Shown here in pieces: positions 30,463 through 57,569 of a stretch of DNA of 64,000 nt (its first letter is position 1; every line of letters starts with the position of its first letter). The notes under the pieces are model-generated. The model ran no database searches. It saw only the letters and a program-made list of their open reading frames with translations, and was not told where the DNA came from. The DNA comes from Gammaproteobacteria bacterium (lineage in GTDB: Bacteria > Pseudomonadota > Gammaproteobacteria > Eutrophobiales > Eutrophobiaceae), in NCBI GenBank assembly GCA_965221695.1, contig OZ244905.1, forward strand, positions 2,144,001 through 2,208,000, read 5' to 3'. Both the position numbers and the translations under genes were made by a program.

Positions 30463-30584
30463 CAAAATTGTGAGTTTTCTCACATTTTTGCTGATTTTTT
30501 TCTTGCCAGTCAGCGCGGCGCTGATACACTTTTCTATGTGGTCCAGGATCACGGAATTCAATACTCAAACATTTGGAGACCATT

Positions 30585-30857
30585 ATGAAAACGTTAAAAT
30601 ATCTCGCCTTTTCCCTGCTGTTCTGCTTTTCTCTTACCCTGTTTGCCGGCGACGCAGTCGACCTTAACGGGGCCGACAAGGAAACGCTGATGGGCCTGAA
30701 CGGTATTGGTGAGGCGTTCGCGCAAAGGATTATAGAATACCGGGAAGAAAACGGCGGCTTCAAATCCGTGCAGGAACTGACAAACATCAGGGGCATCGGA
30801 CAGACCCTTCTGGAGAAAAACAGAGACCTGCTGACGGTGGGAGACGCTACCAAATAA
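30585..30857 (+). CDS. comEA: ComEA-like helix-hairpin-helix DNA-binding protein
   Basis: Signal peptide, VDLNGAD, LNGIGE..AQRIIEYRE.NGGF, IRGIG; RBS GGAG before ATG 30585. Confidence 0.9.
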   Translation: MKTLKYLAFSLLFCFSLTLFAGDAVDLNGADKETLMGLNGIGEAFAQRIIEYREENGGFKSVQELTNIRGIGQTLLEKNRDLLTVGDATK

Positions 30858-43861: not shown

Positions 43862-43934
43862 GGGTCGTTAGCTCAGTCGGTAGAGCAGCTGACTTTTAAT
43901 CAGTTGGTCGCAGGTTCGATTCCTGCACGACCCA
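43862..43934 (+). tRNA. tRNA-Lys (anticodon TTT), CCA not encoded
   Basis: GGGTCGT acceptor, anticodon loop CTTTTAA, GTTCGATTC T-loop. Ends ACGACCCA, followed by TCT instead of CCA. Confidence 0.97.
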
Positions 43935-57125: not shown

Positions 57126-57141
57126 TGTGAGTTTTATCACA
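57126..57141. promoter_or_regulatory. CRP-family binding site
   Basis: Perfect TGTGA-N6-TCACA core, centred at 57133.5. Confidence 0.65.
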
Positions 57142-57159: not shown

Positions 57160-57188
57160 TTGCCGAACAGAACATCTTTTCTCAGAAT
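57160..57188 (+). promoter_or_regulatory. Candidate weak sigma70 promoter reading into the tRNA-like array
   Basis: TTGCCG-17-CAGAAT. Predicted +1 at about 57195 places the CRP box at -61.5. Confidence 0.5.
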
Positions 57189-57196
57189 GGGCTGAT

Positions 57197-57227
57197 AAAA
57201 AACCCGTCCCCCTAAGGAGACGGGTTT
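57197..57227 (-). terminator. Intrinsic terminator, unit 1 (minus strand)
   Basis: Minus strand reads CCCGTCTCC-TTAG-GGGGACGGG-TTTTTT. The C-A mismatch on the + strand is a G-U pair on the - strand. Confidence 0.8.
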
Positions 57228-57232
57228 ATTCT

Positions 57233-57335
57233 GCCCAGGTGGTGAAATCGGCAAACACAGGGGACTGCCACTCCCCCGGCCTCTGTAGCGAAACCTACAT
57301 GCCTTACGGGTTCGAGCCCCGTCCTGGGCACACCA
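57233..57335 (+). tRNA. Atypical tRNA-like gene: tRNA-Leu-type body with GCC (Gly) anticodon
   Basis: Acceptor GCCCAGG/CCTGGGC; D arm GTG/CAC with GG; anticodon stem GGGGA/TCCCC with loop CT-GCC-AC; 29-nt variable region; T arm ACGGG-TTCGAGC-CCCGT; A73, then CACCA. Confidence 0.65.
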
Positions 57336-57350
57336 TAGGCGCCAACAGCC

Positions 57351-57379
57351 ATTATCGTGGCCGGCGCAGGACTTGTCAA
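57351..57379 (-). promoter_or_regulatory. Sigma70 promoter, unit 1 (minus strand)
   Basis: TTGACA (57379-57374), 17-bp spacer, GATAAT (57356-57351). Confidence 0.8.
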
Positions 57380-57385
57380 TATGAT

Positions 57386-57417
57386 AAAAAAACCCGTCCC
57401 CCGAAAGGGACGGGTTT
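57386..57417 (-). terminator. Intrinsic terminator, unit 2 (minus strand)
   Basis: Minus strand reads CCCGTCCCT-TTCG-GGGGACGGG-TTTTTTT, with a UUCG tetraloop. Confidence 0.8.
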
Positions 57418-57422
57418 ATTCT

Positions 57423-57525
57423 GCCCAGGTGGTGAAAACGGTAAACACAGGGGACTGTCACTCCCCCGGCCTCTGTAGTCAGACCTACATGCCTTACGGG
57501 TTCGAGCCCCGTCCTGGGCACACCA
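57423..57525 (+). tRNA. Atypical tRNA-like gene: tRNA-Leu-type body with GTC (Asp) anticodon
   Basis: Same cloverleaf as 57233-57335; anticodon loop CT-GTC-AC (anticodon 57457-57459). Confidence 0.65.
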
Positions 57526-57540
57526 TAGGCGCCAACAGCC

Positions 57541-57569
57541 ATTATCGTAGCCGTACAGGGGGCTGTCAA
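57541..57569 (-). promoter_or_regulatory. Sigma70 promoter, unit 2 (minus strand)
   Basis: TTGACA (57569-57564), 17-bp spacer, GATAAT (57546-57541). Spacer sequence has diverged from unit 1, but both hexamers and the spacing are kept. Confidence 0.8.

Follow-up and report, generated by a model that had tools for sequence, protein, structure and literature searches.

What use could a bacterium have for genes that look like tRNA-Leu but carry the anticodons of tRNA-Gly and tRNA-Asp? Two such genes lie in tandem on contig OZ244905.1 of a genome (G000, our source genome) from a genus of uncultured marine Gammaproteobacteria, within a 64-kb stretch that we call the window and along which all window positions are counted. 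A sequence-only reading of positions 57233..57525 had proposed that the pair are natural missense tRNAs, charged with leucine and inserting it at GGY and GAY codons. We find that the scaffold with its mismatched anticodons is real and is conserved as a family beyond chance, and that each tRNA-like copy has its own module of ~270 bp. We tentatively favour a reading in which the module is a regulated sense/antisense pair around a tRNA mimic.

Leu-type bodies with Gly and Asp anticodons

Copy 1 (57233..57330, + strand) and copy 2 (57423..57520, + strand) score 52.1 and 53.3 bits against the Rfam tRNA model RF00005 (gathering score 29; E ~1e-8 for both in the 64-kb window), and 114.7 and 115.0 bits against R1, our covariance model of the family. 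Both are Leu-type class II cloverleaves with a 7-bp acceptor stem, a 3-bp D stem, a 5-bp T stem, a 29-nt variable region and the discriminator A73. The anticodon loop is CUGCCAC in copy 1 (GCC, Gly) and CUGUCAC in copy 2 (GUC, Asp), the latter being identical to the loop of the G000 tRNA-Asp(GUC). The residues listed in the sequence-only reading (U8, A14, G18G19, U33, A37, G53-C61, the TTCGA T loop and A58) are present in both copies, together with T54, T55 and C56, and the two cores indeed differ only at D-loop positions 16 and 20, at anticodon position 35 and in the variable-arm loop. The copies repeat with a unit of 190 bp and, aligned over 167 nt, show 94% identity. ARAGORN called neither copy in the window, its sole call being a tRNA-Lys (43862-43934); it probably misses them because of a 27-nt insert in the variable region relative to the tRNA model. 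No Rfam family besides tRNA reaches its gathering score in the window, nothing credible appears on the antisense strand, and the sub-threshold matches are driven by terminators.

Each copy is followed by CACCA (57331..57335 and 57521..57525, + strand), such that the 3′ end reads A73-CA-CCA and the CCA lies 2 nt away from the discriminator, out of register. By contrast, CCA directly follows N73 in the Leu, Asp, Gly(GCC) and Tyr tRNA genes of G000 and in three of its four Ser genes. The canonical tRNA set of this genome is complete (44 tRNAs, including Gly GCC, UCC and CCC, Asp GUC and five tRNA-Leu genes), and the two window copies are therefore extras. In many copies a second GGCACCA-like heptad lies just 3′ of the CCA (window 57336-57350 and equivalent positions; for example, ...GGGCAGCCAAAGGCACCAG); it could be the trace of an old attachment-site duplication, or part of the 5′ end of the antisense RNA described below.

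The displaced CCA was absent from the sequence-only reading, as were a predicted terminator for the opposite strand 5′ of each copy and a consensus promoter motif directed into each copy from the 3′ side; the family, the antisense unit, the regulated sense promoter and the link to RTX genes were likewise absent from it.

A family derived from tRNA-Leu(UAA)

Searches with R1, which was built on 36 distinct cores, identified 34 copies scoring at least 104 bits in 13 of the 23 genomes of one genus. The next-best matches, in all 23 genomes, are the genuine tRNA-Leu(UAA) genes (70–76 bits), with tRNA-Leu(GAG) following at ~54 bits; the family appears to be derived from tRNA-Leu(UAA), its nearest real gene. 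A third copy in G000 (G000:C1:285519-285702) lies upstream of a genuine tRNA-Leu(CAG) in the same orientation. When 185,579 species genomes were scanned with a pattern that left the anticodon loop free, 22 stretches were recovered, of which 19 were titled as bins of uncultured Gammaproteobacteria, one was a short contig labelled Enterobacteriaceae and one was labelled Acidimicrobiia. Metagenome contigs yielded 5 stretches with seven copies, every one of them GCC or GUC, and viral contigs scanned with the same pattern gave 0 matches. Below, flank-based counts refer to 37 unique copies and core-based counts to the 36 distinct cores; because the copies are mutually related, counts across them overstate independence.

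The cores vary as a cloverleaf would. Across 29 cloverleaf pairs in the 36 cores, all of which find support, 96.8% of 1,044 pair cells are paired, and two-sided compensatory change at pairs 5-68, 6-67 and 31-39 accounts for 24 cells, a level reached by 0 of 500 shuffles. Unpaired variation sits at positions that vary in tRNAs (16, 17, 20, 32, 35, 37/38, 59, 60 and the variable-arm loop), and U8, A14, G18G19, A21, T54, T55, C56 and A58 are invariant. Single-sided changes leave wobble pairs on the tRNA strand in 18 cells of 5 pairs, some of which recur in distinct cores (U11.G24 in 3, G28.U42 in 4 and a variable-arm U.G in 9). Each of the six unpaired cells is a C.A or A.C that occurs once and would be a wobble pair on the opposite strand. 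Counted as events, wobbles number ~5 on the sense strand versus 6 on the antisense strand, and it is their persistence across copies that favours the tRNA strand. The hairpin that precedes each core shows the opposite pattern: in three copies (L013, L056 and L033_6599), positions that mismatch as C.A or A.C on the tRNA strand form G.U pairs on the antisense strand. Between G000 and a second genome, G008, the modules are 96–98% identical, compared with 90% for the adjoining yebC region.

Two loci stand out within the family. One is L046, a 3,037-bp contig labelled Acidimicrobiia, which has three modules and to which the AUC and GCU variants of the anticodon are confined; its label is probably a binning error, the DNA belonging to the gammaproteobacterial genus. 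The other (L032; G003:C1:1143000-1158000) holds ten modules within ~10 kb, in an array that starts after a full RTX gene. Some of these modules lie 420–620 bp apart with no open reading frame (ORF) between them; between others stand small coiled-coil ORFs, a HigB-like/HTH pair and a 178-aa C-terminal fragment of an RTX protein. This array was also considered as an integron attC/cassette array, a candidate that was rejected because the outer arms of the cores read GCCCAGG / CCTGGGC and variants, not RYYYAAC ... GTTRRRY.

A predicted convergent antisense transcription unit

On the 3′ side of each window copy, a near-consensus promoter motif points back into the tRNA-like gene. Antisense promoter 1 (57351..57379, − strand) consists of TTGACA (57379..57374), a 17-nt spacer and GATAAT (57356..57351), matching 11 of 12 consensus positions, and antisense promoter 2 (57541..57569, − strand) has the same hexamers and spacing around a spacer whose sequence is unlike that of promoter 1. 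Placing the start ~7 nt past the −10, the predicted antisense RNA 1 extends over 57197..57344 (− strand, ~148 nt) and is complementary throughout to copy 1 and its leader hairpin; the predicted antisense RNA 2 covers 57387..57534 (− strand, ~148 nt). Each predicted transcript ends in a hairpin that can form on both strands. Hairpin 1 (57197..57230), flanked by an A-tract and a U-tract (U6 on the − strand), would serve both as the terminator of antisense RNA 1 and as the 5′ leader hairpin of the sense transcript, and hairpin 2 (57387..57420; 12 pairs, U7 on the − strand) is the putative terminator of antisense RNA 2. The predicted fold of antisense RNA 1 has a free energy of −69.9 kcal/mol. Both antisense RNAs have a thermodynamic z-score of −3.55, to which the terminator contributes, and the sense cores have −1.2 and −0.7; these scores do not tell the strands apart.

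The arrangement recurs throughout the family. All 37 copies have TTGACA without a mismatch and a spacer of exactly 17 nt, although the spacer sequences diverge, and the −10 is GATAAT in 26 copies, GATACT in 6, CATAAT in 2, GACAAT in 2 and AATAAT in 1. A U-tract of 5–8 nt on the antisense strand directly follows the hairpin in 36 of 37 copies. The predicted start lies 10–20 nt past the CCA, and the run from there covers the entire tRNA-like sequence and stops at the hairpin. In a control set of the 44 canonical tRNA genes, none had an antisense promoter matching at least 10 of 12 positions within 90 nt of its 3′ end, and G000 contains a total of 13 sites of the form TTGACA-N17-(at least 5 of 6 positions of TATAAT). 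As predicted from these motifs, the antisense promoter and terminator are the best-supported features of the module outside the tRNA-like core. A short AUG frame in the antisense leader of the window is missing from the copies in G003.

A proposed sense promoter with a Crp-type palindrome

Upstream of copy 1, the best candidate for a tRNA-sense promoter (57160..57188, + strand) comprises TTGCCG, a 17-nt spacer and CAGAAT, matching 8 of 12 positions. It is preceded by the palindrome TGTGAGTTTTATCACA (57126..57141, + strand), a proposed activator site for this promoter with its centre at about −61.5. On the tRNA strand upstream of the hairpin, the palindrome TGTGAGTTTTnnCACA occurs in 30 of 37 copies; the seven without a match include four inner copies of tandem arrays, copy 2 of the window among them, and one copy with a one-base variant. 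Most copies have a −10-like hexamer (TATAAT, TAAAAT, TACAAT, TAACAT or CAGAAT) 10–11 nt before the A-tract of the hairpin. In the long form of the module, the centre of the palindrome lies ~48–49 nt ahead of the −10, that is, at about −61 (counted by hand on the sequences), and in the short form (L010, L015, L016 and L046_923) it lies 29 nt ahead, at about −41.5. TGTGA-N6-TCACA is the consensus site of E. coli CRP, and we take these two spacings to be the class I and class II activator positions of that protein.

The motif is enriched in G000, which has 9 TGTGA-N6-TCACA sites versus 2.6 expected and encodes two Crp-family proteins. Eight of these sites carry the extended motif: the two tRNA-like loci and six sites elsewhere, at five of which the motif stands 18 nt before a −35. 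Because this architecture is common to real genes, the promoter on the tRNA strand is of a type used by G000 genes.

Several of the other sites deserve mention in their own right. Within the window, an extended palindrome at 30469-30484 (AAAATTGTGAGTTTTCTCACATTTTTGC) lies 18 nt upstream of a TTGCCA −35, and the ORF behind it (30573-30857, + strand) encodes a 94-aa signal-peptide protein with a ComEA-type HHH_3 domain; together with the modules, this comEA-like site suggests a small regulon with a common operator. At G000:C1:1442746 (L076), the palindrome is followed by a ~370-nt leader and a class II aminoacyl-tRNA synthetase gene that by eye resembles proS, and at 925265 (L075) it lies ~270 nt upstream of a PrmC/PrmB-like methyltransferase gene, with no −35 located. 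The operator is therefore common to translation-related genes and the tRNA-like modules. Three copies of an unannotated sequence of ~200 nt stand behind the same palindrome at G000:C1:424821, 427661 and 828838 (L073 and L074); with a TTGTCA/TTGGCA-17-TAAGAT promoter, a closing stem CCGAACG ... CGTTCGG and no Rfam match, this sequence may be an unknown small RNA family. The other palindrome-bearing loci of G000 also gave no Rfam matches. In a variable RTX region of another genome, G014, palindromes at L033 positions 7689, 10074, 16125 and 17380 have no adjoining tRNA-like core; partial modules, or further promoters of the palindrome type, are therefore common in that region.

Anticodons toggle between two states

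The family carries almost exclusively two triplets: GCC in 18 of 37 copies and GUC in 17, with AUC and GCU once each. In a tree computed for 34 copies after masking of the loop, anticodon labels cluster no more than shuffled labels do, and well-supported branches force at least eight switches between GCC and GUC. Hence, either C and U replace each other at position 35 with unusual frequency, or both states are kept; both types occur in six of the seven multi-copy genomes. Positions 32 and 38 co-vary with the anticodon, and most GUC copies have C38. Compared with the 44 tRNAs of G000, the T arm of the family is closest to that of tRNA-Asp(GUC) (16 of 17 positions), followed at 14 of 17 by tRNA-Gly(GCC), both tRNA-Glu and tRNA-Arg(CCG), and it matches the parent tRNA-Leu(UAA) at 13 of 17. 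These patterns suggest that the anticodon, or its antisense complement, is under selection and tied to Gly and Asp.

Other features bear on whether such RNAs could decode. The CCA directly follows the discriminator in 15 of 37 copies; 1 nt intervenes in 9 copies and 2 nt in 11 (including both window copies), and 2 copies have no CCA. U33 is replaced by C in 3 of 36 cores. The D loop reads GGYAAAC in 36 of 36 cores compared with GGYAGAC in all five genuine tRNA-Leu genes. All but one of the 36 cores have A73, and A15/U48, G18G19, A20a and U54:A58 are invariant.

Modules lie near RTX genes and mobile elements

In G000 and G008, modules lie between nadA and yebC. Ten other genomes of the genus share this synteny with a spacer of ~105–195 bp and without the module, which indicates that the module is an insertion into the nadA-yebC spacer. 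The spacer of G000 does not align simply to the empty sites, which blurs any target-site duplication.

In eight other genomes, the module lies 120–550 nt downstream of a gene from one family of RTX-repeat paralogues. These proteins are 39–59% identical to one another and rich in glycine (16–20%) and aspartate (14–17%), and GGY and GAY make up 14.0% and 14.7% of the codons of the neighbouring RTX genes versus 6.1% and 6.3% in 12 window ORFs. The predicted antisense RNA is co-oriented with the RTX gene and located past that gene's own terminator. Across the 23 genomes, the RTX C-terminal domain and the element occur together in 10, the element alone in 3 (G000, G008 and G011), the domain alone in 6 and neither in 4; because this co-occurrence is incomplete, the linkage is positional, not obligatory. 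Co-regulation of the RTX genes through the palindrome was considered and rejected, as no palindrome lies upstream of the three RTX genes checked (L085-L087).

The remaining neighbours include HigB-like and HTH genes, a ParE toxin gene and Fic, NYN and AAA_15 genes, as well as IS110, IS21 and Mu-type transposases and two tyrosine recombinases (L033 and L034). The recombinases that adjoin modules score 44–50 bits where the NCBIfam cut-off is 220, which was a further ground for rejecting the integron array. A dedicated recombinase for the modules was rejected, because the adjoining tyrosine recombinase family (in 14 of 23 genomes) and the element do not co-occur: 9 genomes have both, 4 the element only, 5 the recombinase only and 5 neither. 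Among 13 unannotated neighbouring ORFs, most of them spurious-looking, we found no common uncharacterised protein partner. At a syntenic site by an ABC transporter gene in two genomes (L034 2001-7422 and L035 2249-7161), two direct module copies bracket ~5 kb of cargo. In one genome this cargo comprises NYN, DUF3226 and an AAA_15 ATPase, and a tyrosine recombinase lies immediately beyond it; in the other it comprises an RTX-type M10 protease and Fic. The site has the look of a recombination hotspot.

A proposed regulated sense/antisense pair and its alternatives

Under the tentative reading that we favour, a weak promoter with an upstream Crp-consensus site would drive transcription through a short hairpin leader into the tRNA-like RNA, and the sense transcript of the window would span both tandem copies. 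The near-consensus and presumably constitutive promoter 3′ of each copy would give rise to an opposite-strand transcript ending at the hairpin, the product being a perfectly complementary antisense RNA of ~150 nt. This RNA, together with promoter collision, would keep the tRNA-like RNA low until a Crp-type activator turned the sense promoter on. The tRNA-like RNA would then act as a mimic, with a Leu-type body on which the anticodon loop and the T arm are those of tRNA-Gly(GCC) or tRNA-Asp(GUC). Such a mimic might be a decoy that engages enzymes which read anticodons, or the ribosomal A site when a GGY or GAY codon is there. Given the 2-nt displacement of the CCA in G000, routine decoding seems to us less likely than a mimic that does not decode or is harmful. 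The sequence features of the module and their conservation are direct observations, from which we infer the production of both RNAs, their interaction and the action of the effector.

A number of points weigh against this reading. The promoters on both strands are predicted from motifs, and the effector role of the mimic is a guess. Copy 2 of the window has neither a palindrome upstream nor a sense promoter of its own. The 5′ hairpin, which has a partial U-tract on the sense strand, stands only 2–4 nt before the 5′ end of the tRNA-like sequence and could stop sense transcripts early. The wobble-pair evidence on which strand matters is modest, because the strands differ only in persistence. Finally, modules are linked to RTX genes, their T arm resembles that of tRNA-Asp, and positions 32 and 38 change together with the anticodon; these three findings suggest that the anticodon does have a part in translation, and suit a true decoder better than a decoy.

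An alternative that we regard as unlikely is that the antisense RNA alone matters. It would then be a small RNA of ~150 nt, possibly one whose partners are canonical tRNAs (Asp, Gly or Leu) or the precursors of these, and the other strand would look like a tRNA either by descent or because complementarity to canonical tRNAs forces that form on it. Consistent with this idea, the promoter (37 of 37) and the terminator (36 of 37) are the best-conserved features outside the tRNA-like core, the hairpin mismatches become G.U on the antisense strand, the predicted fold is stable (z −3.55) and the variable register of the CCA would be irrelevant. Moreover, all 7 nt of the antisense loop are complementary to the anticodon loop of the G000 tRNA-Asp, and the antisense T-arm segment is complementary to 16 of the 17 nt in the T arm of that tRNA. 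However, a conserved sense promoter with an architecture common to real genes is left unexplained, the three wobble variants found in several distinct cores become A.C mismatches on the antisense strand, and conservation tracks the tertiary-interaction pattern of a tRNA. The antisense strand also lacks any match to an Rfam family.

The anticodons could instead be taken at face value, with the RNAs acting as extra cognate isoacceptors of class II shape that are charged with Gly or Asp through the anticodon and meet the GGY/GAY demand of the RTX genes. The position of modules downstream of RTX paralogues in eight genomes, the codon use of these genes (GGY 14.0% plus GAY 14.7%, compared with 6.1% plus 6.3%), the T arm (16/17 to tRNA-Asp, 14/17 to tRNA-Gly and 13/17 to the parent) and the near-even split between GCC (18/37) and GUC (17/37) all speak for this reading. 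According to the identity rules as far as they are set out in the available part of a review (PMC9976931), C38 is an Asp determinant and G1-C72 and C2-G71 are Gly identity elements, and a marsupial mitochondrial tRNA serves Gly and Asp through position 35 alone. The same text gives U73 for bacterial Gly and G73 for bacterial Asp; A73 fits neither. By the E. coli identity rules, the body would fit LeuRS through A73, the hinge nucleotides and C2-G71, whereas the anticodon, C38, G1-C72 and C2-G71 would partly fit AspRS and GlyRS and the discriminator would not. The CCA register poses a problem here as well, duplication of a tRNA-Gly or tRNA-Asp gene would be far simpler in evolutionary terms, and the antisense unit is left unexplained. 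G000 and G008 carry modules and have no match to the RTX C-terminal domain, and no palindrome precedes the three RTX genes checked. We therefore consider this reading quite unlikely.

The missense reading supposes that mature RNAs receive leucine from LeuRS, which would recognise A73 and the Leu-type core, and bring it to GGY and GAY codons, with the antisense RNA as an antitoxin-like brake. This reading is in our view very unlikely, although part of it stood. The scaffold/anticodon mismatch is real and the features that LeuRS requires are kept (A73 in 35 of 36 cores; A15, G18G19, A20a, U54 and A58). In the portion of the review at hand (PMC9976931), E. coli Leu identity depends on A73 and on hinge and tertiary nucleotides, needs neither the anticodon nor the variable arm, and is protected from SerRS by C2-G71, which bears out the earlier statement that LeuRS does not read the anticodon. 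By sequence, the copies thus carry what E. coli LeuRS would look for (A73 plus the hinge and tertiary nucleotides). The CCA comes straight after A73 in 15 of 37 copies, tight antisense control would suit a harmful product, and tRNAProX provides a precedent (PMC10404621, as far as its accessible text goes). The interpretation itself fared less well, as several observations speak against routine decoding in G000: the displaced CCA, C33, the D-loop A, the Asp-like T arm and the antisense overlap of every copy. Across the family, the CCA is displaced in 20 of 37 copies, including both in the window, and absent in 2; C33 occurs in 3 of 36 cores; and one D-loop position sets all 36 cores apart from the five genuine tRNA-Leu genes. 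In addition, GGY and GAY make up 28.7% of the codons of the adjoining RTX genes, and leucine insertion would harm those proteins most. A scan of 58 neighbouring proteins revealed no dedicated synthetase gene.

That the copies are non-functional relics, either duplicated tRNA pseudogenes or attachment-site remnants of mobile islands, is highly improbable: they adjoin tyrosine recombinases (L033 and L034), IS110, IS21 and Mu-type transposases and toxin-antitoxin genes, include truncated copies (L029), bracket a 5-kb cargo in L034 and L035 and often have GGCACCA repeated just 3′, but their stems show compensatory change, TTGACA is exact in 37 of 37 copies although the spacers diverge, the modules are more conserved than the neighbouring gene between G000 and G008, and the recombinase and the family do not co-occur (9 both, 4 element only, 5 recombinase only and 5 neither).

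Comparison with known systems

Bacterial tRNA-like genes in which body and anticodon disagree are rare. Allo-tRNAs and tRNAProX are the only ones that we found described, and a search of full-text literature, with supplements outside its scope, gave no description of the present family. Should the anticodons be functional, which is possible but doubtful, the module would encode either a toxic Leu-accepting tRNA with an antisense antitoxin and Crp-type release or class II Gly/Asp tRNAs for RTX proteins. The toxic version would amount to toxin-antitoxin logic with a tRNA as the toxin, and functional anticodons of either kind would be a new bacterial form of on-demand modulation of decoding for two codon families. 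In eight genomes, the modules are physically linked to genes in which 29% of codons match the two anticodons. If the RNAs decode, they would reprogramme translation in a regulated and codon-family-specific way; if they do not, they would represent a new kind of tRNA mimic or anti-tRNA small RNA.

Type I toxin-antitoxin systems and other cis-antisense pairs have convergent, overlapping transcripts, with a strong constitutive antisense promoter facing a weaker, regulated sense promoter, and occur in multiple copies in variable regions. At the level of motifs, the modules resemble such pairs in having overlapping convergent promoters on both strands. Unlike type I systems, they contain no toxin ORF and no start codon that is conserved across copies, and the overlapped region is a cloverleaf.

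The available part of the allo-tRNA report (PMC5389517) describes a long variable arm, an anticodon that mismatches the body, GUC among the predominant anticodons and frequent proximity to toxin-antitoxin systems or transposable elements, all of which the family shares. Some allo-tRNAs were judged to be unused in translation (PMC5389517; Mukai et al., NAR 2017, in the part available). As described there, allo-tRNAs have 8/4 or 9/3 stems and mostly Ser identity, whereas the family has 7/5 stems, a Leu-derived body, A73 and C2-G71. The family also differs from the allo-tRNAs of that text in its restriction to GCC or GUC in 35 of 37 copies, in its conserved cis-antisense promoter and in its Crp-type sense promoter.

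In tRNAProX of Streptomyces and Kitasatospora (Schuntermann et al., JBC 2023, PMC10404621), the body of one identity likewise carries the anticodon of another amino acid and, according to the accessible text, expression is toxic in E. coli. There, tRNAProX adjoins a dedicated ProRS isoform; by contrast, no synthetase was found by Pfam among the 14 + 5 + 39 proteins neighbouring our modules, and the CCA register of the family is irregular. The pseudo-tRNA tRNAOther of Bacillus cereus, as presented in the accessible part of PMC3399842, is a tRNA-like gene at the edge of a genomic island that is non-translational and affects physiology. It is a single gene on a different scaffold, that text describes no antisense partner for it, and the analogy is functional only.

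The closest parallel to the anticodon toggle is the marsupial mitochondrial tRNA-Asp/Gly, which, in the portion of PMC9976931 at hand, shows the same switch at position 35, with GCC for Gly and GUC for Asp. In marsupials, the two states arise by RNA editing of one class I gene, whereas in the family they are borne by separate copies with a Leu-type class II body. What the family brings together is a Leu-type 7/5 scaffold with an oversized variable arm, a Gly/Asp toggle, a predicted cis-antisense unit and a putative regulated sense promoter.

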